Of a stretch of DNA of 64,000 nt, positions 34,147 to 48,009 are shown in pieces; the first letter of the stretch is position 1, and each line of letters opens with the position of its first letter. Location of the stretch: NCBI GenBank assembly GCA_963665235.2, contig CAXXLX010000001.1, positions 2,848,001-2,912,000 on the forward strand, written 5' to 3'. Under the pieces are notes generated by a model. It worked only from the letters and a program-made list of their open reading frames with translations. It did no database searches and was not told the DNA's origin. The position numbers were made by a program, and so were the translations under genes. The DNA is from Candidatus Poribacteria bacterium. GTDB taxonomy: Bacteria > Poribacteria > WGA-4E > WGA-3G.

Positions 34147-34926
34147 ACCCTGTCCCCGAAATCGCAGAAATAGCAGAATGAAAACAATTGAGTTCACTAA
34201 CAGCATCGTTGAAATAACGTTAAGCACCGGCGTGATACCGAATTTAAGGAGCGAATAGATATGCACCGACAAGGTTGTATACCCAACGCCAGCAGTAAAA
34301 AAGGTAATGACAAAATCATCTATTGAGAGCGTGAAAGCGAGTAATGCCCCGCCAATAATTCCCGGCGCGATGAGTGGTAACGTTATCCGCCAAAACGTCT
34401 GCCACTCCGTAGCACCGAGGTCCAGGGCTGCCTCCTCTATTGTGTTATCGTACCCTTGTAAGCGTGCCCGCACGACGATAGTGACATAAGCGATATTGAA
34501 AACGACGTGGGCAATGATGACTGATGCCAAGCCTAACGGAATGCGGAGCTGCGCGTAAAATGTCAATAACGCAATCGCTAACACGATGTCCGGAATGATA
34601 ATCGGAAGATAAAGCGCGCGGACTAAAACGGTGCGAAACCGAAACCGATATTTTTCTATAGCAAGCGCAGCAGCGGTTCCGATGATAGTTGCAATCAACG
34701 TCGCAAGTCCCGCCACCATCAAACTATTTTTACAAGCACGCCATACATCTTCGTTTTCAAACAACTTCGGATACCACTTGAACGTGAACCCCTCCCAAAC
34801 CGAAATCTGTTCACCGCTATTGAAGGAGAACACGACAACCGCTAAAATTGGCACGTAGAGGAAGAGAAAAACGATGAGTATATTAATTTCAAGAAGCCTT
34901 TTCACTTTCACTCCCTGCCAAAGCAC
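34129..34926 (-). CDS. potC: Spermidine/putrescine ABC permease PotC-like
   Basis: FLYVPI..FSFN, EEAALDLGA, AFTLSIDDF. Confidence 0.85.
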   Translation of the reverse strand: MLWQGVKVKRLLEINILIVFLFLYVPILAVVVFSFNSGEQISVWEGFTFKWYPKLFENEDVWRACKNSLMVAGLATLIATIIGTAAALAIEKYRFRFRTVLVRALYLPIIIPDIVLAIALLTFYAQLRIPLGLASVIIAHVVFNIAYVTIVVRARLQGYDNTIEEAALDLGATEWQTFWRITLPLIAPGIIGGALLAFTLSIDDFVITFFTAGVGYTTLSVHIYSLLKFGITPVLNVISTMLLVNSIVFILLFLRFRGQGHLEKS

Positions 34927-35740
34927 GAAAATATAGCACTGTGCCTACGAGCACAATCCCCATCAGCATGAGGGACAGGGCCGAACCGAACGGTGCATCG
35001 CGTGCAGTTTTGAATTGCCGTTCAATTACGTTCCCTATATAACTCACTTTACCGCCACCGAGTAAATCTGGCGTTAAAAATGCACCGACTGTGGGGATAA
35101 AAACTAACATGGAACCTGCCAAGATGCCGGGGAGGCTGAGCGGGACGGTTACGTGCCAAAAAGCGCGCCGCGACGATGCCCCTAAGTCTTTCGCTGCTTC
35201 TATCAGGGACAGGTCCAATTGCTCCAATGCCGCGTAGAGGGGTAGAATCATAAAGGGTAGGTATCCGTAAACTAAGCCTATCTGCACAGCGAACTGTGTA
35301 TTCAACAGCTCCAGCGGTTGAAAATGTGGAATAAGCAGAGCTAGGAAACTGTTCAGAAGTCCTTCTGTGCGGAGAATCAATATCCATGCATAGGTGCGAA
35401 TCAGAAAGTTTGTCCAAAATGGGATGACTACCAGCAGCAATAACAGATTTCGCCACTTCGGGCGGTAGCGCGCCAAATAGTAGGCAAACGGATAACCGAT
35501 AAGCAGACATATCGCCGTGCAAATGAACGCGCTCCATATCGAACGCCACAATATACCTATATAGAGCCCATCGAACAAGCGTTGATAGTTTTGTAGTGTG
35601 AAGTGCCACCGAACCCCACCATAAGTGCCGCGCTCCAGAAAACTATAGATGAGTATGGATATAAGCGGCAGCAGGAAAAAACAGATAAGCCAAAAGATAA
35701 TCGGAAAAAGCAGGATGAGGAGACGGTAATTACGACGCAT
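34889..35740 (-). CDS. potB: Spermidine/putrescine ABC permease PotB-like
   Basis: IPFWTNFLIRTYAW, YLPFMILPLY, EAAKDLGA. Confidence 0.88.
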   Translation of the reverse strand: MRRNYRLLILLFPIIFWLICFFLLPLISILIYSFLERGTYGGVRWHFTLQNYQRLFDGLYIGILWRSIWSAFICTAICLLIGYPFAYYLARYRPKWRNLLLLLVVIPFWTNFLIRTYAWILILRTEGLLNSFLALLIPHFQPLELLNTQFAVQIGLVYGYLPFMILPLYAALEQLDLSLIEAAKDLGASSRRAFWHVTVPLSLPGILAGSMLVFIPTVGAFLTPDLLGGGKVSYIGNVIERQFKTARDAPFGSALSLMLMGIVLVGTVLYFRALAGSESEKAS

Positions 35741-38729
35741 TTTCCTCTATATGTTGGCGGATGTTGTTCTGTATATTCCACGGGTCGGTGGTTTCGAAAA
35801 ATGTCCACTCTCCAAACTCACGATATGCATTTACGGCTGGAAGCCACATATTTTGGACAGTGTTCACTTTCTGAACCTTATCTTCACGTTGCAACCCAGA
35901 GGTTTCAAGTATTAGGTTGACAGTGTCATCGCTAGAGCTGTCCCCCTGTTTCCGAATGCGAACGATGAAATCCGGAACATATTGCCGGCTTGCTCCGTTG
36001 TGCTCGATGTATGGAATTGTAAAACCCAAATGGTGATTTTTGACGTACGCCTCCACCTCCGGCATCTGCTCTAAGGCTTGCGCGGTTTTCTGTTCCCAAG
36101 AATCTGTATCCGCAACCACATGTGAGATATGACATTTATCTGGGCGCGTCTCCCACGTCGGTTGCGTTGTTTCAAACTCGACATCATCGGTTGAGCCGGT
36201 CCGTTTTTTGTCACGGAAAATGGGGAGGAACGTCTTTGGTAAAGACCCATCTTCAGAATCGCTACTTCGGGCTTGCTCTTCTGCCCTGATAATGGCGTGA
36301 TGAATCCGAGATGCTGCCTTACGCGCAACCTCACCGATATGAAAACAGTGCGGATACATGTTGTCTTTGTAGGTAACACATTCCTTCATCCAGCGGCGTG
36401 TGATATGCAGAACTTGTGGGAAAAGCCACCACTTTGCATCGTCATCATCGTCGAGAAGATGATTCTTCATTACCTCATTGGCGAGATAGTATTCGGTTTG
36501 CTGAGCTCGAAATCGTGTCAGATAGGGTAATTCAACCTCCTGGGTTCCGCCGGTTATGCTCTCAATCTCTATAAGGGACGGGAGCTCCGCAGTAGAGAGT
36601 TCATAGCGGGATGCCTCAGTAAAAATCGCATCGAGCTTATCAGGAGACGACTGCCGGCGATACCCAGCAACGAGCGGAAACGTAATTTCACACGTTGCCT
36701 TCCGTTCTGGAACTGCCTTCACTTCTGTCACAGGCAGGAGAGGGGTCACCCTGCCGCTACCGGTTGCAGGGATAAAGGAGAACGGAACGCCATAGACTTC
36801 AGCATATTCGGGGGGAAACGTCTCCAACGTGAGCTGTTCCCCGTTGATATCAATTGTTGTCTGTTCCACAGCGTGACTGGAGCGGCGCAGCCCTCTGCCG
36901 ACAACCTGTTCGCAGAGCAGCTGCGTGCTAAATGCCCGCACCCCAAGGATATGTGTCACCCGCTTGGCATCCCAGCCTTCACTCAACATTGACACCGAAA
37001 TCACACATTTAATATTTTCACCCAATTTTCCGCGTTTACCGACGGTGTTCATGACTTCCCGCAACAGCTCCGCATCTGTGACCTTCTCCACGTTCATCTT
37101 CTGTTTGAACTGTTCAATTTGGGTTCGGGCAGCTTTTTTAAACTCACCCTTCAATGCCTCCCCTGATTCTAACTGTTTGCTATCGATGAGCAGTGTGTTC
37201 AGCTGGTCGCGCCATGCACCGTTGTCCTCGTTATTAAATATTGGAAGGTTTCCTTTAGCAACTATAGTCTCGCCATCAGTCGTCTTTTTCTCCCACCCGG
37301 CAATCCAGTCGTAAACGAGTTTGGAAACCTTTGTGTTGTTACAAACAACGATCATCACGGGGGGAGTCAACCCGTGTGGCTCCTTGTGCCACAAGTCGTA
37401 CGTCTCTTCGTAATTGGCATAAAGAGCGTGGAGCGCGGTTTCTAATTCTGAGGGCAACTGCGGTTCACCCCCAGAAACTATTTTACTGAGCTTCGGACGG
37501 ATAGTATCCCAAAGCCGACGATAAATCGGATCGCCTCTCATGGTATCGTCAGCGACTGGCACGCGCGGCACTTTCGCAATACCACACTCTATTGCATCGA
37601 TTAACGCAAAATCGGAGACGACCCATGGAAATAGCACCCCCTCACTGAGCTTCTTACCGCTCGGTGTCGTTGTTGAATACCCCGACCCTTTTAGAAAAAA
37701 CGGCGTGGCAGATAAATCGTAAACCTGTTTTATGCCGAGCTTCGCTTTCACGGCTTCAAGTCCGTTTATCCACAACCGCGTTTCGTCCGCTGTAGCTCCT
37801 GTTTTCTCACGTTTTTTGGGACGATAGCAGTGATGCGCTTCATCGTTCAACACAATGATATTTTTCTTTTTTCCGAGTCCGCGGCAAACGCGAACCACCA
37901 TCTCATCGGGTGTTTCTGTGAAATTTTTTGCCGCCTCCTCCCCCAAAACTTGTGTGCCTATTTTGCTTAACTTCTCCTTCTTTCGGCACTGAAACGCATG
38001 ATAGTTCGTGATAACGATTTTCGCTTGACAGAGGGCATCATAGTCATCACTCGGAATCAGCTTCATATTCTTATAGTCATTCTCAGGGTTCTCTGGGTAC
38101 AACACCTGCAGCCGGTCGCGAATTGTTATACCGGGCGTGACGATTAGAAACGCATCTACAAAAAGCGTGCTCCGAGGATTCGCAATTTTATTCAACGTAT
38201 GATACACAATCAGCATCGCCATGACGACCGTTTTACCGCTACCGGTCGCCATCTTAAAGGCTGTGCGGAAGAGCTCTGGATTTGCCTCCGAATTCGCATT
38301 GACAAGCTCTCTGTAAAATGAATCGTTCCGTTGTTTGTTGTCACATTCGTTGAGATAGATGGCTGCCTCTACAGCTTCACGTTGACAGAAATAGAGACGC
38401 GGCTCGTTTTTTGGATTGTTCCAATGCTCTAAAAGTCGTCTGGTTGTGGGGGTTACGCCCGGATAACCGCTGTTCCGCCATGCGGTCACTTGTGTACGGA
38501 CACTATTGATGAACGCATTCGCCTCCCGGAGATCTTGGTCTGGCATTTCAAATCCTATCTGTGATGCCCCAGGCTGCTTTTTCGGTTTCGGAAACGGCAT
38601 GAAGTATTCACTTCTACGTCTCCCCTCAGCGAGCTCTTCGGTGATACCGCGCGCGTTGAATTTGAAGTGACGTTTCGGCTCCTCAAACGGACTGTTGATA
38701 ACGGGGTTGTCTATGCTAACTTTTGACAT
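35730..38729 (-). CDS. Type III restriction endonuclease Res subunit (SF2 ATPase + PD-(D/E)xK)
   Basis: YFCQREA, MATGSGKT, NDEAHHCY, SATP, MLSEGWD, QVVGRGLR, YVPDF..LETSG. Confidence 0.88.
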   Translation of the reverse strand: MSKVSIDNPVINSPFEEPKRHFKFNARGITEELAEGRRRSEYFMPFPKPKKQPGASQIGFEMPDQDLREANAFINSVRTQVTAWRNSGYPGVTPTTRRLLEHWNNPKNEPRLYFCQREAVEAAIYLNECDNKQRNDSFYRELVNANSEANPELFRTAFKMATGSGKTVVMAMLIVYHTLNKIANPRSTLFVDAFLIVTPGITIRDRLQVLYPENPENDYKNMKLIPSDDYDALCQAKIVITNYHAFQCRKKEKLSKIGTQVLGEEAAKNFTETPDEMVVRVCRGLGKKKNIIVLNDEAHHCYRPKKREKTGATADETRLWINGLEAVKAKLGIKQVYDLSATPFFLKGSGYSTTTPSGKKLSEGVLFPWVVSDFALIDAIECGIAKVPRVPVADDTMRGDPIYRRLWDTIRPKLSKIVSGGEPQLPSELETALHALYANYEETYDLWHKEPHGLTPPVMIVVCNNTKVSKLVYDWIAGWEKKTTDGETIVAKGNLPIFNNEDNGAWRDQLNTLLIDSKQLESGEALKGEFKKAARTQIEQFKQKMNVEKVTDAELLREVMNTVGKRGKLGENIKCVISVSMLSEGWDAKRVTHILGVRAFSTQLLCEQVVGRGLRRSSHAVEQTTIDINGEQLTLETFPPEYAEVYGVPFSFIPATGSGRVTPLLPVTEVKAVPERKATCEITFPLVAGYRRQSSPDKLDAIFTEASRYELSTAELPSLIEIESITGGTQEVELPYLTRFRAQQTEYYLANEVMKNHLLDDDDDAKWWLFPQVLHITRRWMKECVTYKDNMYPHCFHIGEVARKAASRIHHAIIRAEEQARSSDSEDGSLPKTFLPIFRDKKRTGSTDDVEFETTQPTWETRPDKCHISHVVADTDSWEQKTAQALEQMPEVEAYVKNHHLGFTIPYIEHNGASRQYVPDFIVRIRKQGDSSSDDTVNLILETSGLQREDKVQKVNTVQNMWLPAVNAYREFGEWTFFETTDPWNIQNNIRQHIEENAS

Positions 38730-38789
38730 TATTTATCCTCCATCTTCATCACCTTTTGCACGTTCTTAATCGCTTTGTAGATGAGCCGC

Positions 38790-39896
38790 TTATCCTGATC
38801 GAGTCGGTTTGCTAATTTTATGGAACACTGTTGCTGCGTCGGTGTTACCGTCAAACCCATGCATCACCATGAATTCCCAGATTTTCTTTCGAGTATCCGC
38901 CTCATTTTTGGCGATGCTAAACCTATGTTCAATCTGTCCGATTGCAGGAGTGATTTGATGCATTGCGTAATCTTCGTTTAGTATTGCAATAATGTCCTCA
39001 AGTTCGGGATTCTCATAGTTCTCAAAGGCTTTCAGGATAGTAGCCCAAATCACCGGATCACTCACCGGGGTCTGCTTCTGTGTCCAATGCACCTGCTCAA
39101 TTTGGTGAGGTTTACACTTATACGGCCGGATTTCGTGAGTGTCTTTTATTTTGACATACCAGATGCTGCCTTCCTCGCCTTTAAACATGGGAGCTTGATT
39201 TTCATCCAGGCCGATGAACGTCAATTGCCTGTCTAGCTCTTTCTGTTCCTGTTCATAATGCCACACATAGTCTTTTTCAACGGTGCCGAGTTGTTCTGCT
39301 TTTGGGATGTCGCCTGCCTCAAGTTCGGTATTCAGCACGATTTGCCCATCCCCTTCGCGCAGCCCGAACAACAAAACGATGTCCAACTTGACATCCTCAT
39401 ATTGGAGCATGTGTGGGTTATCTGACCCATAAAGCTCAAAACTGAAACCTGCGATATCCGGATTCATTCTGAACAATTTGGTAATCTGCGGGTATTTACG
39501 GAGGATATGCTGCCACATTGTTAGGTATCGACCCCGCAAAAACGGAAACAGACGTACTTTAAACGTGATATATTCCATACCCTCGTTTTTATAGCGGTAC
39601 ATAAAGATGTTCGTACCGTCGTATTTACGGAAGCGATAAATCCGTTCCGCGCTCGGAAACCGGTAATTATGCCCTAATCCGAAGGGGTAAGCAATTTTCG
39701 GCGTGCCAAAAATTGGCGGATGGTCAACAACCTCACCATTAATCTTTTTTATCTGCAACGAACCGTAGTGTTTATCTTTGCTGACAATGAGCTGCCCCTC
39801 AAGGTGGTTTTTGGGGTTAAAGGGGTCTGTCGCGCGAAATTCAGAGTAGTCTGAATTGGAAGGTTGCTGTCCTTTGTTTATTTTCTGTTGCTCCAT
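38790..39896 (-). CDS. Putative ATP-dependent RNA ligase (Rnl3/Pab1020-like nucleotidyltransferase); probable frameshift near the 3' end
   Basis: GTPKI, KYDGTN (motif I), FELYGSDNP (III), LFGLRE (IIIa), EEGSIW (IV), YKCK (V). Confidence 0.6.
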   Translation of the reverse strand: MEQQKINKGQQPSNSDYSEFRATDPFNPKNHLEGQLIVSKDKHYGSLQIKKINGEVVDHPPIFGTPKIAYPFGLGHNYRFPSAERIYRFRKYDGTNIFMYRYKNEGMEYITFKVRLFPFLRGRYLTMWQHILRKYPQITKLFRMNPDIAGFSFELYGSDNPHMLQYEDVKLDIVLLFGLREGDGQIVLNTELEAGDIPKAEQLGTVEKDYVWHYEQEQKELDRQLTFIGLDENQAPMFKGEEGSIWYVKIKDTHEIRPYKCKPHQIEQVHWTQKQTPVSDPVIWATILKAFENYENPELEDIIAILNEDYAMHQITPAIGQIEHRFSIAKNEADTRKKIWEFMVMHGFDGNTDAATVFHKISKPTRSG

Positions 39897-39961
39897 TGTT
39901 CTTCTCCAAGGGGCCTAGCGAATTGTCCATTCTAAACTTAGTGCCTATTCGTAGTAGCACA

Positions 39962-40471
39962 CTACGCCTCATTCTCAAGTGGGCAGAGAAAGTCAATCTG
40001 CACGCCTTCTTGTTCAAATGCTTCTCGAAACGGTTCCCATTTTCTATCTAATGCCTGCAAGATAGTCGCTTTTTGGAGAAAGTCACGCTCATAAGCGATA
40101 GCAGCCGCAATAAATTTTCTATCAGCTACGTCAAAATCGCTTAATGCTTCGGTAGTTGGAAACTCCTCAAAATCTGTGTCACTACCACCCAGCGGGGTGA
40201 TGGTTACCATTGTGCAAATCGCCGGTCTCCGCATCAGATTCTGCAGCAACGTTTTTACAAAAAGATCGCCGATTCCTTTCCGAGTCTCTAAATTAACATA
40301 TCTCTTGTACTCGTTAAGAATTCGCCACCCATCATCAACAACGGACGTTTCTGGCTGTTCGAGAATCTGTTTAATTCGTTTTTGACACTGTTCCACACAG
40401 TTGGGTGAGGCATGCTCTGCCTGATCATTTGCAGTTATGATAACATTCGTATCTACGATAACAGCGTTCAT
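39962..40471 (-). CDS. PIN-domain-like nuclease
   Basis: VIVDTNV, ILNEY, FDVADRKFIAAA, ALD acidic motif pattern; TAATG-coupled to the ATPase. Confidence 0.65.
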   Translation of the reverse strand: MNAVIVDTNVIITANDQAEHASPNCVEQCQKRIKQILEQPETSVVDDGWRILNEYKRYVNLETRKGIGDLFVKTLLQNLMRRPAICTMVTITPLGGSDTDFEEFPTTEALSDFDVADRKFIAAAIAYERDFLQKATILQALDRKWEPFREAFEQEGVQIDFLCPLENEA

Positions 40472-41769
40472 TACTCCTCCGCTCTCTTTTGACGTTCTCT
40501 TTGTGCTTCTGTCATGGCAAATAGGTCTCCTATCTCGTCACCAAAAAAGTTTGGTGGCCAATTCCCGATGTTACCGAATTCATCCATCTCCAACTTATCA
40601 ATTTTGGAAACCCCTTCTTCATTACGACAAAAATAGAGGGCAGTCTGATCGGCAGCAATCTCTTCCTCCGCGACGCGCCGCTGTAACCGATTTAGTAGGT
40701 GTTCACTGTGGCTCTCTATCAAAACCTGAAGATTCCTTTCTGTGATAACCTCTATCAGCAGATCCGCGATGGCAGCTTGTGCTCCGGGATGAAGATGAGT
40801 CCCAGGTTCCTCAAGGATCAACGTGGATCCAATCGGGACATAATAACTCATAACCAGAATGGGGAGAAATTGTGAAACCCCATAACCTATGTCTGCCAAT
40901 GTCACTTTAATACTTTTCGGACTCCTTTGGATTCGGAATTCATAGTTTTTGTCGTCCCGTGGACCGGTCCTGGCAAATTCAAAGGTGTACGCCAATTCCA
41001 TTTTTTGTAACCAGGCTGAGATTCGCGACTCAATTGAGACATTTGCTCCTTTATAAGGGGTCATTCGCTGATCTATACGAGCAGAGAGAAGAGCATCAAT
41101 TGTCTGACCACCCCACTGTCCGGGAGTTTCGGGAAAATCACCCTCCCAATGATAGTAACGTTGCGGAGGAACACGAGTCGGGCCGAGGTAATAGACTTGA
41201 GAAAATAGATCTTCAAAGGTAGATGCATATTTATTTAAAACTTCTATACTTTTTGAAGATGCGGGCCCGCATGCAGTTTTTCCATAGCACGTGTTCAGTT
41301 CTATTTTGCGTTGGTTTCTTTCTTCTTTATACGAAGATGGAAAAAATACAGAGCCTTGATCGTATATTATCTCGGGCTTCCTACGAGAACGATAACCGTA
41401 GCTGAGTCTGTCAACAATTGATTTTTGCCGTTCGGCTCGAATCATACTCTCAAAAGCAAAACTATTTACTCTCTCCTCCTGTGGAAAGTGGGTATGCTTA
41501 AATTCGCCCGCTAACTCAAGACCAAGAGGCGATTCCGATTTATGCCCGTGAATTACTTCTCGAAAATCACCAAGATTGATAAGCGAATTGTCATCACCGA
41601 AGAAGAGAATTTCATCTGTCCCAATAGTCTGCTTAAGCAACAGCAACATCTGCAACAGACTGCTCTTCCCAGAGCTATTGGTTCCGAAAAAGCCTGTCAA
41701 CGGCGCGAGTTTCACCTCACCGCTATCTTCCCACGATTTAAAGTTTTTCATTCGTATATGTGTAATCAT
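40471..41769 (-). CDS. ABC-type (AAA_21/DUF3696-like) ATPase
   Basis: MKNFKS, GTNSSGKS, IGYGVSQ, ILEEPGTHLHP, ESHSEH, C-terminal GNWPPNFFG. Confidence 0.8.
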   Translation of the reverse strand: MITHIRMKNFKSWEDSGEVKLAPLTGFFGTNSSGKSSLLQMLLLLKQTIGTDEILFFGDDNSLINLGDFREVIHGHKSESPLGLELAGEFKHTHFPQEERVNSFAFESMIRAERQKSIVDRLSYGYRSRRKPEIIYDQGSVFFPSSYKEERNQRKIELNTCYGKTACGPASSKSIEVLNKYASTFEDLFSQVYYLGPTRVPPQRYYHWEGDFPETPGQWGGQTIDALLSARIDQRMTPYKGANVSIESRISAWLQKMELAYTFEFARTGPRDDKNYEFRIQRSPKSIKVTLADIGYGVSQFLPILVMSYYVPIGSTLILEEPGTHLHPGAQAAIADLLIEVITERNLQVLIESHSEHLLNRLQRRVAEEEIAADQTALYFCRNEEGVSKIDKLEMDEFGNIGNWPPNFFGDEIGDLFAMTEAQRERQKRAEE

Positions 41770-41922
41770 TTTTTTCCTCCGTGCATATTATACGCAGTTT
41801 CACAAGAAAATTCAAGGAATATCCCCGATTCGGGTATGTAAAGTTTCTGTACAAGTTAATCTATTGATGTTTAAAACGGCCTGCTCGGACAGTGTGACTC
41901 ATTGCCCATCAGAGCGGTGCTC

Positions 41923-42183
41923 GTAGTAGGGGAACCATTTATTGCCCGTTCTTTCTTAGCTGGTAGTAGGGCAATTTATTGCCCGTTAATCCCGTTGCTG
42001 CATCTTAAACCTCCAACGGGTGATAAATCACCCTACTACAAACGCATCCACTCCTAAGCTGACCGTTCTTAGCTGGTAGTAGGGGCCCCTTTATTACCCA
42101 GCGAAACCCTATTTCTAGCAGCGAAACGCATCGCACATCACAACCCTAGACAACACGACGGGCGATAAATCGCCCTACTACAA
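41923..42183. repeat. Cluster of GTAG-type REP-like palindromes in inverted pairs
   Basis: GTAGGGCAATTTATTGCCCGT and ACGGGCGATAAATCGCCCTAC variants. Confidence 0.7.
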
Positions 42184-42216
42184 ATGAGTGTACGAAAATT
42201 TTACGTACCCCCCGAT

Positions 42217-44918
42217 TCAGACAGCATACTCCTTCATCACCTCATCACCGAAATGATTGATAACCTTCACCGCAATTTTACCAGACTCAGGCTTCGCAAA
42301 CGGCAGACTCTCTGTCCGATACAGAGCCTCCCACGCCTCCTCATTAATTTCGGAATTCAACGCTCGCTTGAGCTGCTTATACGGCTCCCCTTCACCTGTG
42401 AAATATGCATGCCGCACAAAAAACGCCTCACCGTTATAGGCAGTGTCAATAAACCAACATGCAATATCGTCGGGATTATTAGAGCGGGTTAACCCTTTCT
42501 TCGCATCGTAGACATCCACGCCTAAGAGTTTCACAGAGACCGTGTCATCTTTAGAATACCTTATCTCCACATCCGGCTCCCCGAACACCATAAACAGATT
42601 TCCTTCACCTGTGTTATCAAGTTCGCGGACCATCAGTTCAGGGCTCATCTTGACAGGCAGAATCTGGAGGCTGCCCATGTGTGTGTTCTCACCCGCGGTG
42701 TATCCCTCAAAAGCGAACCCCATGACAATGAGCAGATCAAATTTGGGAACTCGGCGCACCGCTTCCTTCGCGGCTGTCTCTATCCATTGCCGGCCCACCG
42801 TCCCATACTCCGGGCCAATACTTATAGCGATGCTCTGTGCGTTACCCTGCTCATCGGTATGGATACCCTCCGCGTGTAACCACTCACCGGGGAGAGATTC
42901 CAACCACTCGAAAGTGATACGCTGCTTCTTGAGACGATTTTGCACCCCTCCCGTTTTCAAATGCTCCAAAATATGCTTAATGTAATCTTGCGAATTCTCG
43001 GAGGAGACAGGTGTTGGTGTGTCCCCCTCGGTGTCCGGAGCCTCCGGGACAAGATGCGGCGATAGACTCTCCACAGTAAAAGGACCAGTGACACGTACCC
43101 GTTTGCTGTCTCGATATGGCTCATCGTAAAGTACCACATTTTTGGCGCGGCGGGCAGTAGAAGCATCCATCTCGCGTTGCCGCTCGCGTTTGAGGGATAC
43201 CCACTGGCGATGTAGTTTCTGGAATTCTGAATCCCATTTCGGATCGGTTTCGGTTGGCACTTCCCACTCTTTCCAATATGTAATATCCCCCCCCTTCTTT
43301 TTTCACAGGTGTTAATTATTTTGAGAAGGGGGTCTAATTTTTCAGCATATTCGGCATGAATATCGTCAATCTCCGTGTTATTTGCTATGTCTGATAGACT
43401 CAGGTGTGGTACCGACTTATAGACAAAACCGCGCTTGATGTCGTCTGCCTCTTCAAGACGATAATAGGGATATTTACCAGCCATGAGGCGGGTACGTGCC
43501 AGTGCTGATGCGACGCGAGACGTGTCTATTGTTATCCACCGTCTTCCCCACTGTTCTGCAACGTAAACCGTGGTGCCACTGCCACATGTCGGATCTAGCA
43601 CCAAATCGCCGGGATCTGTCGTCATCAATATGCATCGTTGAACGACTTTAGGATTCGTTTCTACAACATACATTCTTCCAGACCGAGATCCTCCCGCAGT
43701 GTCAGTCCATAAGTTCGTAACGGCAAGCCCTGGAAAATCACCAGCATATCGTATATAGCACAATGTCTTTCCTAATGGAAGAAGCCTACCTTGTTTCGCT
43801 AGGCGATTTAGCCCTTCGTGACTTGCAGCCCATCCCCGATCTCCAGAGGGCACATAGGTTTTACCTTCAAATTTATACGCATAATTAGAACTCCCACCGG
43901 TCTGTGATGAGACTGAATAATCTGCAAATCTCCGACTTCCTTCAGGAAGAAGCGAAGGGTTTTCTCTCTCTCCCTTCGTCATTCTCCGACGTGTTTTATT
44001 CGGTAATTCAACGTTATAATAACGCTTTAAAAGCGGGTCGGCTGTCCGTTCATTACGCTCCATATAGAGTTGATTATACTTCATTTGATTCTTATCTTTT
44101 GCGTACCATAAGAGATAATCTGATGTTGATGCTAACTCTGTCGAAGAAGTCATATTGGTACGAACCCACGTGATTGTGGAAACAAAATTGGTATCCCCAA
44201 AAACCTCATCTAATAAACACCGGACGCGATGAACGTTCTCATCGCTAATCTGAACGAAAATGCTGCCGCTCTCCGTGAGCAATTCACGCGCAACGGTCAG
44301 CCGGTCGCGCAGGTAAGTGAGATAGGAATGGATACCGAGTTCCCACGTATCACGGAAGGCTTTTACCTGTTCCGGTTGTGGCGTAACATCTTCTGTTTTG
44401 GTATCGCTGACCTCGCGCTTTCGGGTGCTGACCTGCCAATTGCTCCTAAAACTAATTCCGTAAGGCGGGTCGAAATAGATCATTTGCACCTGTCCCTTGA
44501 GATGCTCCTTTTCGGCGAGGGAGTTCATCACAGCAAGCGAATCGCCTGAGATAAAGCGGTTATGCCAATTCTGTTCGTGTTGATAGAACTCAATTTTCTG
44601 GGCAAGCTCGAGTGTCTCAAACCGGTCAAAGAGACTTAAATCCTGCTCCGATTCCCGCTGTTCATGTGCGCGAATTGCCTCAATAATGGCTTGCGGTTGG
44701 ATATGCTCATGAATGTAGATAGGGACACTTTGCACCTCAAGGTCGTTATCGTTTTGCTGGTCTTTACCTTTCCAAACCAATTGCGGGTCAAGGGCAATAT
44801 CGCGCGGATACCGTGTCGGTGCAAGCTCACCGTTTTCGGCAAAACCGCTCAGTTCTTGAGTTGGGTTATTAGGCAATTTGTCGGTGTGTTCGTAATGGTT
44901 AACCGGTTTTTTAGCCAT
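42217..44918 (-). CDS. Type III R-M DNA methyltransferase Mod, frameshifted at a G8 tract (43287-43294)
   Basis: GDSL, YFDPPYG, DPTCGSGTT; ORFs 42957..44918 and 42217..43260 join in frame with G9 or G6. Confidence 0.85.
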
Positions 44919-44989
44919 AAATGGGTCTCCGCTCTTTTAATTGACATTATGCCGATTTATCTGATTAAATCATTATAATGTCTAGTGTT

Positions 44990-45250
44990 TTACGTCAGTG
45001 CTATTCTCTCTTCGGTTTCTTCCAAAACCTGTTGGAAGTCTTCAGGCGTGTTCGCCAAAATCGCAGCGCGGAGCAATGCTTGGAGCTGCTGCGGGTCGTC
45101 TATCTGTTCCAACGCAGGTTTAAAGCGAAGCGCATCATCGGACCGCAAGCGAAGGGTTAGTACCTCAAAGACGCTTCGCTGTAAGGCCTCCTGTCGCGCT
45201 TCCGCTGCGGCTTTCTCTGTTAGGTGTCGGATAATATCTAATTCGTACAT
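44990..45250 (-). CDS. Stand-alone duplicate of the Rpn C-terminal domain (RpnS-like antitoxin)
   Basis: Near-identical to 45371..45628; own GGAGG RBS and ATG. Confidence 0.7.
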   Translation of the reverse strand: MYELDIIRHLTEKAAAEARQEALQRSVFEVLTLRLRSDDALRFKPALEQIDDPQQLQALLRAAILANTPEDFQQVLEETEERIALT

Positions 45251-45370
45251 CGTCTCCTCCGATATAATTTCAAAACCGGATTCAACCTATAAACCGAGTT
45301 GTCGCATCTATATCCGGGAGACGCTGCATCAACGGCACGGTTCCGGATTTTCTGAAATAGGGAGTGCCAT

Positions 45371-46258
45371 TTACGCCTCGGTTTCTTCCAAAACCTGCTG
45401 GAAGTCTTCAGGCGTGTTCGCCAAAATCGCAGCACGGTGCAATGCTTGGAGCTGCTGCGGGTCGTCTATCTGTTCCAACGCAGGTTTAAAGCGAAGCGCA
45501 TCATCGGACCGCAAGCGAAGGGTTAGTGCCTCAAAGATGCTTTGCTGTAAGCCTTGCTGTAAGCCTTGCTGTCGTGCTTCCGCTGCCGCTTTCTCTGTTA
45601 GGTGTCGGATAATATCTAATTCGTACATCGTTTCCTCCTTTACAATAGCTAAAATCATCTCCATATCATAAACTAAATTGCCTAAAATAGCCATGCTCCC
45701 AATATATTCAGATGGTTCCGGTACATCTGCGCGCGCTGCTGCTTGAACACACCGCCGAAACCACGCCTCCGCATCTACACCCGCAGGACGCTCCATCAAC
45801 GGCGTAAAAGGAAGCAACCCAACCGCATTCGAATCCAAAACTGCCTGACCATCCATATCTATCAACCGAACAACCTTATACTCTATCAAAATACGGTGAT
45901 CCGCTAAATCTTGTGTGAAACGTCCCGGGTCATTTTTACCCGCATCCGGGCGAATATAGATGACATAAGAATACACAAGCAACCCATATTTCTCAGCTAT
46001 CCGCATGATGTACCCCCCCATTCTTACAGGCATGGGCGGGTCATAGCTGTCTGTGGTTTGGAACTCAATATGCAACAACGCTTCTTTGCCATCAACTTCC
46101 ATTTTGATAAGCACGTCTGCCTGATGCATCTCAATCGTTGGTTGTTCAGGCGTGATAATTTCTAGCACAGTGAAATCTTTGTCGCCTATACAAAGGTTTG
46201 CAAAATCATCAGGGTGTTCCTGAACATAATCTTTAGAAATAGTGTCAACTACTGCCAC
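45371..46258 (-). CDS. Rpn/YhgA-like PD-(D/E)xK nuclease
   Basis: AAAGGAGA + GTG start; ADVLI..LHIEFQT..MPVRM; LLPFTPLM; QQGLQQGL tail. Confidence 0.8.
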   Translation of the reverse strand: MAVVDTISKDYVQEHPDDFANLCIGDKDFTVLEIITPEQPTIEMHQADVLIKMEVDGKEALLHIEFQTTDSYDPPMPVRMGGYIMRIAEKYGLLVYSYVIYIRPDAGKNDPGRFTQDLADHRILIEYKVVRLIDMDGQAVLDSNAVGLLPFTPLMERPAGVDAEAWFRRCVQAAARADVPEPSEYIGSMAILGNLVYDMEMILAIVKEETMYELDIIRHLTEKAAAEARQQGLQQGLQQSIFEALTLRLRSDDALRFKPALEQIDDPQQLQALHRAAILANTPEDFQQVLEETEA

Positions 46259-46338
46259 TTTATCTCCTTTCGCCAATATGGCGTTGCTCATTTTAAAATT
46301 AACGTGAGCTTGATAATAAATATCCGTTTGCACTAACC

Positions 46339-46472
46339 TCTATAAATATATCGTCCCTACGGGACTAAGAGACCGAGCAGAAACGGCTTCTATAAATATA
46401 TCGTCCCTACGGGACTAAGAGGTGTGAGCGGTCTGTGTTTCTATAAACATACCGCCCCTACGAGGCTAAGAG
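46339..46472. repeat. Three 33-bp palindromic direct repeats with 17-18 bp spacers
   Basis: TCTATAAATATATCGTCCCTACGGGACTAAGAG x2 plus one variant. Confidence 0.8.
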
Positions 46473-46578
46473 CGTGTGCGTTCTGTGCTGCTTAGGCAAA
46501 GCTTTGATTGTTACGCCTCTTAAAATCCGCGAAATCCGGGTAATCCGCGATAATCCGCGATTCAGACAACGCAACCCA

Positions 46579-47766
46579 CTAACCCGCAGCAGGTGCGAAC
46601 GTTTCGGGATTTTCAGCAGCTGCATCGTAATCCTCAATGAGTTTTGTAATCATCGGGTTCTGTCCACAAAGCGGACAACTTTCATCTCGATTGATTTTCA
46701 TTTCGCGATAGGTCATACCGAGTGCTTCGTAAAGGATAAGCCTACCGATAAGCGATTCGCCAATACCGATAATGTACTTAATCGCTTCAGTTGCCATCAT
46801 TACGCCAATTACGCCTGGGAGCACGCCCAGGACACCAGCCTCACTTCAGCTCGGCACCAGACCGGGCGGAGGCGGTGTGGGGTACATGCATCGATAGCAC
46901 GGCCCCTCATTCGGTTTAAAGAGCGTGACCTGCCCCTCAAATTGAAAAATACTGCCGTGAACGATCGGTTTATTCATCAGTACTGCAGCGTCGTTAACGA
47001 GATAACGTGTCGCAAAATTATCGCATCCATCCACAATCAGGTCATATTCAGCAAAGATGTCTTCAACGTTGTCAGCAGTCAAACGGAGATTATAGGGGGT
47101 AATTTCAACGTCTGGGTTAAGCGACTTAATCGTAGTTGTAGCGGATTGAACCTTCGGGGTGCCGACCGCTTCGGTACGATGGAGAATCTGCCGTTGCAGG
47201 TTGCTTAATTCTACAACATCCGAATCGATAATCCCGAGGTGTCCGACCCCGGCGGCACCGAGGTAAACGCCAGCAGGTGAGCCCAAGCCGCCTGCCCCGA
47301 CAAGCAAAATCTTCGCATCGAGCAGTTTTGATTGTCCGCGCTCGCCAACCTCCGTGAGCATAAAGTGTCGACTGTAGCGGTCGAGCTGCTCATGCGTCAT
47401 AGGTTTATCTTGTGCGGTTGGAAAACCGGCTGTACTCCAATCACGGTACCCGCCAACCATAGAGACCGTGTCCGTGTATCCCATTTCGCGAAGGGATTTT
47501 GCAGCGAGCAGCGAGCGAAGCCCAGCAGCACAATAGACGACAACCTTTTGATTCCGGTCGGGGATATAGTTTTCAACCGAAAATTCCAGCATACCGCGTG
47601 TGACGTGGACAGCATCTGGGATATAACCAGCACGATATTCATCCTCATCGCGGACATCCAACAGCACGAAGTCGCTGCCTTTCTCCTGTTCTTCCTTCAC
47701 GTCATCGATAGTCATCTCCGGAATTTCCGTTTTTGCTTCCTCAACGATTTGTCTATAAGATTTCAT
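46579..47766 (-). CDS. moeB: Rhodanese-MoeB (MoeZ-like) adenylyltransferase with in-frame UGA, probable selenoprotein
   Basis: LDVR..YCAAGLRS, RYSRH, VGAGGLG, SNLQRQ, CYRC, VPS-TGA-SEAGVLG continuing in frame to CPLCG. Confidence 0.85.
46814..46831 (-). promoter_or_regulatory. Candidate bacterial SECIS hairpin
   Basis: CCTGGG-CGTGCT-CCCAGG, separated from the UGA at 46846-46848 by 14 nt. Confidence 0.55.
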
Positions 47767-48009
47767 AATATATTCTCCAATTTTTCGAGATGGATTGCAT
47801 AAGATTTCGGGAATTTTTTTCAAATTTCTGAAAAAAATTGTAGCATAAGAGGGTATTTTTGTCAATGCCGTTTTTTGCGGACGACAGATAATAGGTTGAC
47901 AAAATGCTTTTAAATACGTTAAAATAAAATAATAGGTGTGCTGCGAAAAAATGCAAATCTGCATAGCAGCCTCTCCGAAATCAGTATCACACACAATAAG
48001 GAGTTAGCA

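Follow-up and report, generated by a model that had tools for sequence, protein, structure and literature searches.

Why would a restriction operon carry an RNA ligase? The question is raised by a locus in the genome of a Candidatus Poribacteria bacterium, a sponge symbiont, in a 64,000-nucleotide stretch of contig CAXXLX010000001.1 that we refer to as the window. Six features lie there on the minus strand at 35730-44918, namely a DNA methyltransferase gene (mod), a cluster of repetitive extragenic palindromic (REP)-like repeats, genes for an ATP-binding cassette (ABC) ATPase and a PIN-domain nuclease, a ligase-like open reading frame (ORF) and a restriction-subunit gene (res). A first-pass annotation, made from the letters alone, had read this as a restriction-modification (R-M) operon enclosing an ABC-ATPase/PIN pair, with the PIN gene coupled to its neighbour through TAATG, and an RNA-ligase-like gene. 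All 6 co-oriented features are present, and profile matches and ligase motifs bear that reading out. The answer developed below, to which we give even chances as a whole, is that the locus is a type III-like R-M operon holding the HEC-03 pair and an Rnl1-like RNA ligase between mod and res, in which R-M and HEC-03 would act as layered defence and the ligase, an optional add-on, would reseal RNA breaks made by the PIN nuclease. This analysis establishes what the 5 genes are and that their order is conserved in related species.

The ATPase and PIN genes form a HEC-03 pair

The larger component of the pair (40471..41769, minus strand) is a 432-residue ABC-type ATPase with a DUF3696 tail. Its residues 1-427 align with positions 1-452 of the 458-position PADLOC profile PDLC04148 (HEC-03B; E = 5.6e-105), and Pfam returns AAA_15 (6.8e-23), AAA_21 (1.1e-22) and DUF3696 (2.2e-9). 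The smaller component is a 169-residue PIN-domain nuclease (39962..40471, minus strand) that matches PDLC04147 (HEC-03A) at 1.3e-29; its sole Pfam match, PIN_3 at 0.0024, is below threshold. The acidic residues D7, E41, D46, D117 and D142 are invariant among 7 orthologues and paralogues. The 2 genes meet in the sequence TAATG, with base 40471 common to the PIN start codon and the ATPase stop codon.

HEC-03 stands for Hma-embedded candidate 03 (Payne, Hughes, Fineran and Jackson 2024, bioRxiv 10.1101/2024.01.29.577857) and is included in PADLOC-DB v2. According to the available text of this preprint, HEC-03 was found through its embedding in another defence system and defended Escherichia coli when cloned alone; defence required both genes, and the representative studied there was toxic when induced. 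The same text reports defence genes embedded in Hma, BREX, DISARM and type I R-M systems and explains this embedding without functional dependence between guest and host. Placing the ATPase and nuclease among antiphage sensor-effector pairs, as the first-pass annotation had done, was therefore well founded, HEC-03 being such a pair. Calling the module undescribed was not, given that the pair had already been named and tested in that preprint. Whether the module matches a known system in full has a split answer, as the ATPase and PIN protein match HEC-03 and the ligase matches no PADLOC profile.

The likeness to HEC-03 extends to architecture: an ABC ATPase gene is followed by one for a small PIN protein, and the pair is set between the genes of another defence system. 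The host system differs, being a type III-like mod/res pair of the BPTD_3080 family here and Hma, BREX, DISARM or type I R-M in the survey as far as its available text describes it. HEC-03 is also described there as a two-gene system, whereas here a third gene, for an RNA ligase, comes after the pair; the word "ligase" is absent from the preprint's main text. A ligase gene follows the pair in this locus and on 3 plasmid lineages (see below), and none follows it in the Poribacteria loci L025 and L026. The A and B labels of the ATPase and PIN proteins are swapped between the text of the preprint, in its available part, and PADLOC, whose labels are those given above.

The surrounding genes are a type III-like R-M system

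The mod gene (42217..44918, minus strand) is written in the window as 2 ORFs, 42957-44918 and 42217-43260. It encodes a type III-like N6/N4 DNA methyltransferase (Pfam N6_N4_Mtase, PF01555; 3.3e-36), and its halves match PADLOC MTase_III (PDLC03632) at 2.1e-163 and 7.3e-88, covering positions 66-609 and 620-981 of this single 983-position profile. The res gene (35730..38729, minus strand) encodes a 999-residue helicase-nuclease restriction subunit whose residues 6-994 align with positions 1-970 of NCBIfam NF046055, the BPTD_3080 family, at 1071.4 bits (cut-off 800). Pfam detects ResIII (1.9e-11) and, below threshold, RE_endonuc (0.0042). The hallmarks of type III R-M are present, with an N6/N4 methyltransferase domain in Mod and a superfamily-2 helicase plus C-terminal endonuclease in Res, but because the PADLOC REase_III profiles match res only weakly (1e-6 to 5e-5), we call the system type III-like. 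It is not an Hma system: res matched 4 PADLOC families, none of them Hma, and the 25 best of the 56 families matched by mod are R-M methyltransferases.

Members of the BPTD_3080 family elsewhere share a full-length res that pairs with a methyltransferase of approximately 900-980 residues, as on plasmids of cyanobacteria, Chloroflexota and Proteobacteria. In the 3 plasmid examples read, res precedes mod, in contrast to the order mod then res in the window, and such plasmid operons carry other small inserts or none, for instance a 173-residue protein in Methylomagnum. On plasmid pAQ5 of Picosynechococcus PCC 7002 (L028), a UPF0175/DUF3368 pair lies between res and mod; DUF3368 is presumably PIN-like, and a PIN-type insert in this R-M family may thus recur outside Poribacteria. 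The genome under study itself has a second res of the BPTD_3080 family outside the window (G000:C1:3757089-3760022; 970 bits). This copy is without a HEC-03 insert, since the genome contains no second PIN match.

The third gene is a predicted Rnl1-like RNA ligase

The gene between PIN and res (38790..39896, minus strand; 368 residues in the window) is, as predicted from sequence and model, an ATP-dependent RNA ligase of Rnl1-like type. The ORF had no matches in Pfam, PADLOC, NCBIfam or the sequences of the PDB, and neither RNA_lig_T4_1 (PF09511) nor RNA_ligase (PF09414) was reached by the window protein at E 0.01; 2 of 13 distant family members tested reach PF09414, below threshold only. A DNA search of E. 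coli genomes and a tblastn search of plasmids and phages returned no match. Among 52 diverse homologues, however, K91, D93, G94, E154, G157 and G243 are invariant, and E242, K260, K262, L176 and F177 are at least 90% conserved. We take these residues to be motifs I (KxDG), III, IIIa, IV and V of the covalent nucleotidyltransferase superfamily.

The fold points the same way. For an AlphaFold (AF2) model with a predicted local distance difference test (pLDDT) score of 78.6, the top Foldseek matches are all RNA ligases (2e-8 to 1e-6). VIA alignments, which span model residues 11-277, give Z values of 14.9 for archaeal Rnl3 (5d1o), 14.0-14.1 for T4 Rnl1 and 14.0 for fungal Trl1, compared to 9.7 or less for DNA ligases. 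In a language-model protein atlas, the neighbours of the ligase are mostly viral clusters in which 25-88% of members carry PF09511. The likeness to T4 Rnl1 lies in the adenylyltransferase-domain fold (root-mean-square deviation 3.6-3.7 over 218-223 residues), at a sequence identity of 14-15% and with the C-terminal helical domain of the window ligase (approximately 280-361) unmatched. T4 Rnl1 is, moreover, encoded by a phage, whereas the window ligase is encoded by the host beside a nuclease, in a locus without a Pnkp-type end-healing partner.

The family is large. A word-indexed search returned 141 homologues, mostly 75-84% identical and 388 residues long, and a profile search returned 599 cluster representatives at E ≤ 0.001, of which 290 at ≤ 1e-30; the metagenome scan used a 19-sequence alignment of the ligase, the 52-sequence one being too diverse. 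With a median pairwise ratio of nonsynonymous to synonymous substitution rates (dN/dS) of 0.12, the ligase is under purifying selection. Three family members of 618-742 residues (P0138, P0145 and P0172) contain inteins that include LAGLIDADG homing endonucleases; for P0145, the match to the ligase picks up again at profile position 89, just ahead of the catalytic lysine motif.

Two apparent defects are probably not real

As written, the window contains a mod gene whose frame shifts within 8 consecutive C (43287-43294 of the plus strand, G8 on the coding strand) and a ligase ORF that stops approximately 20 residues short of the C-terminal end of its homologues. Relative to 5 orthologues, each in one frame, the mod run region has 17 extra bases in the window, including the G8 run. 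Taken at face value, these features would make the locus a decaying relic in this genome, with mod split and the ligase truncated. We consider this very improbable, given what public sequencing runs contain. The contigs of 4 of 4 runs have one additional C in the mod run, restoring the frame, and the base at 38813 is absent from 3 of the 4, the fourth run being without cover there. When both differences are applied, mod becomes one 900-residue ORF, and the ligase becomes a 388-residue protein ending at 38729 that aligns end to end with its homologues, its stop codon overlapping the res start in a TAATG junction. The frameshift and the short 3' end are thus probably not real. All 4 runs belong to a single study, and the source sample may be among them; they bear on assembly error rather than representing independent populations. 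Phase variation at the G run was considered and is not supported, as the 4 runs agree on one length in their contigs, which hide rare variants.

R-M and HEC-03 form a stable unit in Poribacteria

In a collection of species-level genomes we found 17 ligase loci, all in Candidatus Poribacteria or in sponge-metagenome bins; the ligase was the query, making its presence in these loci a matter of construction. The island sits at one chromosomal position, with permease genes 79-86% identical to that of the window coming after it in 15 of the 17 loci. The 5-gene order is complete in L010 and recognisable in L006 and L013, in which only remnants of ATPase and PIN are left. In L004, res is missing and the order is mod-ATPase-PIN-ligase, and L001, L007, L012 and L016 have ATPase-PIN-ligase. 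Res orthologues, 73-79% identical, come after the ligase in L006, L009, L010 and L013. The co-occurrence that the first-pass annotation wished to see checked does therefore recur, both as the 5-gene order and as ATPase-PIN-ligase, with the ligase optional. Island genes are in general 73-89% identical to those of the window, the exception being the ATPase: between species (L001-L016) it is 55-61% identical, compared to 85-89% for PIN, 75-80% for the ligase and 73-79% for res, a pattern that fits a sensor under diversifying pressure.

Across the phylum (176 genomes), homologues of PIN were detected in 128 genomes, of res in 127 and of the ligase in 32. We compared listed coordinates by hand for the 36 res genes of family f1 that belong to the subclade of the window (1041-1097 bits), and 30 have a PIN gene or its remnant on the same strand within 2.5 kb; of the other 6, 3 are in genomes without a PIN match and 3 are undecided. 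A second res subclade (approximately 930-980 bits), to which the second copy in the genome of the window belongs, has no PIN neighbour where checked. One, 2 or 3 tandem ATPase-PIN pairs lie between mod and res in the fetched examples (L025, L026 and L114-L119). R-M and HEC-03 are a stable unit in Poribacteria, in which the arrangement mod-[ATPase-PIN]x1-3-res is systematic and the slot before res may or may not be filled by the ligase.

Eleven other genomes have a PIN gene at least 85% identical to that of the window; the ligase adjoins it in 8, the remaining 3 are not resolvable (contig ends or split contigs), and none has this PIN without a ligase. Conversely, 9 of the 17 ligase loci have no intact PIN, and in L014, one of these, the ligase itself is broken. 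Only fragments of the ligase are left in G122, G113, G131, G133, G155 and G073, and a stop codon interrupts it in G075.

Two further features of these islands may be recorded. Two or 3 head-to-tail ATPase-PIN pairs were seen between mod and res in L026 (G067:C1:5333000-5349000), L114, L118 and L119, and coordinates in G065, G137, G132, G175, G079, G123 and G090 also point to tandem pairs; the PIN copies are 41-64% identical to the window PIN, which looks like old duplications retained as an array. In addition, genes for putative endonucleases of the Uma2 family (PF05685) occur at L025:8891-9631, L002:9043-9723 and L017:9125-9808. In one species the Uma2 gene takes the place of the ligase between PIN and res, and in 2 it immediately precedes a ligase whose ATPase and PIN are gone.

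A different RNA ligase accompanies HEC-03 on plasmids of other phyla

Searched with the ATPase, plasmids gave 11 records in which query cover reached 80% or more. Of the 4 loci inspected, 3, which are the best ATPase matches, contain a triad of HEC-03B (1e-110 to 1e-134), HEC-03A (1e-24 to 1e-28) and, immediately behind them, an RNA ligase of family PF09414 (1e-31 to 1e-33). The triads are carried by Azotobacter chroococcum pAcX50e, Aeromonas veronii and relatives, and Rhodococcus aetherivorans, in the same tight order of ATPase, PIN and ligase as in the window, with an ATPase 34-36% identical. Their ligase is a protein of 199-233 residues of the Rnl2 type (PF09414). Because it has no BLASTP similarity to the window ligase (E 6.2), 2 ligase families accompany HEC-03, and sequence comparison indicates that these are unrelated families recruited in different phyla. 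This lends indirect support to the link between ligase and PIN drawn by the first-pass annotation. No mod or res is annotated within 6 kb on either side of the plasmid triads, in records whose gene tables are incomplete. In the fourth locus, from Acinetobacter soli, the ATPase is accompanied by a 175-residue gene and an HNH nuclease, not by a ligase.

Distant homologues of the window ligase keep varied company. In a Pfam scan of their neighbours, near-duplicate loci (L036, L044, L049, L061 and L093) and ORFs below 90 residues were dropped, and the first 150 of the 170 remaining ORFs were covered. A YaeQ nuclease gene immediately precedes the homologue in L021 and L022 and lies 110 nt upstream of it in L054; the homologue is near VapC-type PIN genes in L046, L058, L059 and L082 and near HepT in L079. 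Such nuclease neighbours count in favour of a tie between ligase and nuclease. An RtcR-like regulator beside the ligase in L021 was considered and rejected: the protein lacks a CARF domain and amounts to no more than a sigma-54 activator with propeller repeats. In 4 phage-like metagenome contigs (L041, L043, L055 and L077), the homologue adjoins another RNA ligase, which combines PF09414 with a PHA02142 OB domain, and the L041 contig also encodes a Thg1-like tRNA-His guanylyltransferase; by gene content these contigs look like phage tRNA-repair modules.

Spacer, promoter-like site and flanking genes

The spacer between mod and ATPase holds the REP-like palindromic cluster (41913-42184, no strand assigned), made up of 3 families of direct repeats and 2 inverted pairs. 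The pattern of the family is GTAGTAGGG..ATTTAT..CCC; its core occurs 3 times in the window with 0 expected, and 62 times in the genome compared to 0 for the reversed control. In the contigs of the public runs, read depth rises 10- to 100-fold over 41810-42237, and alternative joints cross the spacer. A promoter-like site, TTGAAT-17-TATAAT (41787..41815, minus strand; 10 of 12 matches), lies 18 nt upstream of the ATPase start. The promoter scan overall was not above chance (9 found, 13.3 expected), and for this site the position alone is suggestive. An Rfam scan over 35000-46500 returned no family match.

The locus is flanked by a gene for an ABC-transporter permease (34889-35740) and a MoeB-like gene (46846-47994). 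Just past mod are 2 ORFs without a Pfam match (45371-46333, minus strand, and 44985-45671, plus strand). The 320-residue one of the 2 has a weak, sub-threshold NCBIfam match to the Rpn family of recombination-promoting nucleases (3.9e-5; 23.6 bits, cut-off 52.1).

Discussion

What could the 5 genes do together? The R-M enzymes would cut unmethylated incoming DNA. Following the proposal for HEC-03 in the available text of Payne et al., the ABC ATPase would sense a cue of infection and let the PIN nuclease cut an essential RNA, so that the infected cell stops. The ligase would reseal the RNA breaks made by PIN with ATP, via a lysyl-AMP intermediate at K91, and this resealing would keep basal toxicity low or allow the cell to recover. 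Of these elements, R-M and HEC-03 are most likely 2 defence layers that are inherited together, and the ligase probably mends what PIN cuts. If it lacks healing domains, a ligase can seal 3'-OH/5'-P ends only, and the repair step depends on PIN leaving such ends.

A bolder version would make the locus a reversible HEC-03. RNA cut by PIN would be resealed by an RNA ligase dedicated to the task, and unrelated families (PF09414 on plasmids, an unmodelled Rnl1-like family in Poribacteria) would have supplied such a ligase on at least 2 occasions. Arrest could then be undone after the phage has been cleared, and basal toxicity would be buffered; the trick that T4 plays on PrrC would here be played by the host. 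The unit would have become fixed in one lineage of type III-like R-M systems, and R-M and HEC-03 may talk to each other. We hold this fuller picture only tentatively. The logic that it shares with T4 Rnl1 and PrrC is that of an RNase embedded in an R-M system and an RNA ligase that undoes its cuts.

Several observations weigh against a repair role tied to this PIN. The first concerns end chemistry: PMC6459853, in its available part, gives 5'-OH ends for products of the VapC family, and we dropped the assumption that PIN products are always 3'-OH/5'-P on this account. In the available text of Payne et al., the HEC-03 that was tested is described as a system of 2 genes. The ligase is also dispensable for the architecture, as L025 reads mod-ATPase-PIN-Uma2-res and L026 reads mod-(ATPase-PIN)x3-res. 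The 80 distant ligase homologues share no common neighbour gene, the largest neighbour cluster comprising 5 loci, and many of their surroundings resemble RNA-repair modules of phages. Finally, loss or decay of ATPase and PIN leaves the ligase intact, with a dN/dS of approximately 0.12 in 21 such pairs, the same value as in 28 pairs with PIN; the ligase must therefore have a use beyond this PIN. A predicted ligase-PIN complex gave a score of 0.00 (mark 0.32), which is evidence neither way.

These points lead to the alternative that the ligase is independent cargo, a general RNA-repair enzyme in an insertion-prone slot before res that serves against any RNase damage, whether from other PIN or toxin-antitoxin genes or from RNases of phages or competitors, and has no special tie to HEC-03. 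In other species the same slot holds a Uma2 nuclease, a WD40 protein, an IS200-like transposase, a 147-residue protein without assignment or nothing, and the ligase could therefore be one more random cargo gene. Its persistence under purifying selection in 7 loci in which ATPase and PIN are gone or decayed also fits. The ligase-"alone" state takes 4 changes on the best tree, and well-supported branches force at least 2 of these. The company of a second RNA ligase and a Thg1-like enzyme in the phage-like contigs is likewise of an RNA-repair kind, and PIN paralogues are abundant, with up to 5 listed per genome in the genomes that have a match. What this account finds hard to explain without a functional tie is the recurrence of HEC-03 with a different RNA ligase family on plasmids of 2 other phyla. 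The orthologous PIN was, furthermore, never seen without a ligase in the 8 resolvable genomes, and the ligase itself decays in some genomes. We regard independent cargo as possible but clearly short of even odds. A DNA-directed role seems much less plausible, namely that the ligase works with Res on DNA or RNA-DNA hybrids, for example in nick sealing, and belongs to R-M instead of HEC-03. With the indel taken out, its stop codon does overlap the res start; in the orthologous loci compared, 8 nt separate the end of the ligase ORF from the start of the res match; and distant homologues are found by DNA methyltransferases (near an Eco57I-like methylase in L019, and between 2 methylases and an Mrr-like nuclease in L020). 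However, the structural match to RNA ligases (Z 14-15) stands well above that to DNA ligases, no ligase occurs in the BPTD_3080 R-M pairs on plasmids of other phyla or in the second copy type in Poribacteria, and the ligase is kept where res is a stub of 23-52 residues (L001, L005 and L017). We consider such a role very unlikely.

The first-pass annotation had favoured a guard model. As PrrC does in type I R-M, the ATPase-PIN pair would be silenced by Mod-Res and released by an anti-restriction protein of the phage, with the ligase reversing the damage or countering phage RNases. The tight co-inheritance of HEC-03 with one res subclade, and its absence from the other wherever checked, would suit such a guard, as would the single gene orientation behind a promoter-like site and the overlap of ligase and res; the precedent of PrrC is documented in PMC2610378, as far as its available text goes. 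Against this, HEC-03 cloned without an R-M partner defended E. coli, and embedding is accounted for without functional dependence, both according to the available text of Payne et al.; ATPase, PIN and ligase are kept where mod and res have been deleted (L001, L007, L012 and L016), and the inspected plasmid triads have no annotated R-M gene in their vicinity, within the incomplete gene tables noted above. Together, defence by HEC-03 alone, the loci without mod and res and the plasmid triads make a dependence on R-M inhibition unnecessary, although none of them excludes it. The parts also differ from those of PrrC, which joins an ABC ATPase and an anticodon nuclease in one protein: the locus encodes its ATPase apart from its nuclease, which is a PIN domain, and does so within a type III-like operon instead of a type I one. 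A guard of this kind is, in our judgement, improbable. Layered defence by R-M and HEC-03, with the ligase as a repair add-on, remains the reading that we prefer.

The central idea of a ligase set against a neighbouring nuclease is not new. According to Matelska et al. 2017 (PMC5499597, available text), Burroughs and Aravind 2016 (NAR 44:8525) proposed that operons of PIN_3, ATPase, RNA ligase and HNH form a conflict system whose ligase serves to neutralise the nucleases, so that a computational proposal has been in print since 2016, and the ATPase-PIN pair has since been named and tested. As that summary presents it, on which our comparison is based, the earlier system and the window locus each unite genes for an ATPase, an RNA ligase and a nuclease of PIN_3 type in a single operon, and they share the idea of neutralisation; the earlier system differs in having an HNH gene, which the window locus lacks, and in its ligase family, that of the window being 388 residues long, Rnl1-like and without a Pfam model. 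The A. soli plasmid locus, with its HNH gene, may be closer to the system as summarised there. Among the matches listed in a full-text search of the literature from 2022 on, judged by title and abstract, there was no experimental study of an ATPase/PIN/RNA-ligase triad. Of 4 further papers that mention HEC-03, 3 look by title and opening of the abstract like surveys of defence systems, and 1 is unrelated.

Several consequences follow for these families and for the phylum. A sizeable family of RNA ligases, with 599 cluster representatives and some members with inteins, has been missed by current domain libraries. Type III-like R-M operons join the systems in which defence genes are embedded, and in one phylum R-M and HEC-03 are a stable inherited unit with 1 to 3 tandem ATPase-PIN copies. 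If the ligase does mend the cuts made by PIN, the locus would be a natural abortive-infection system with a built-in repair step, and would bear on the question of whether RNase-based defences are suicidal or reversible.

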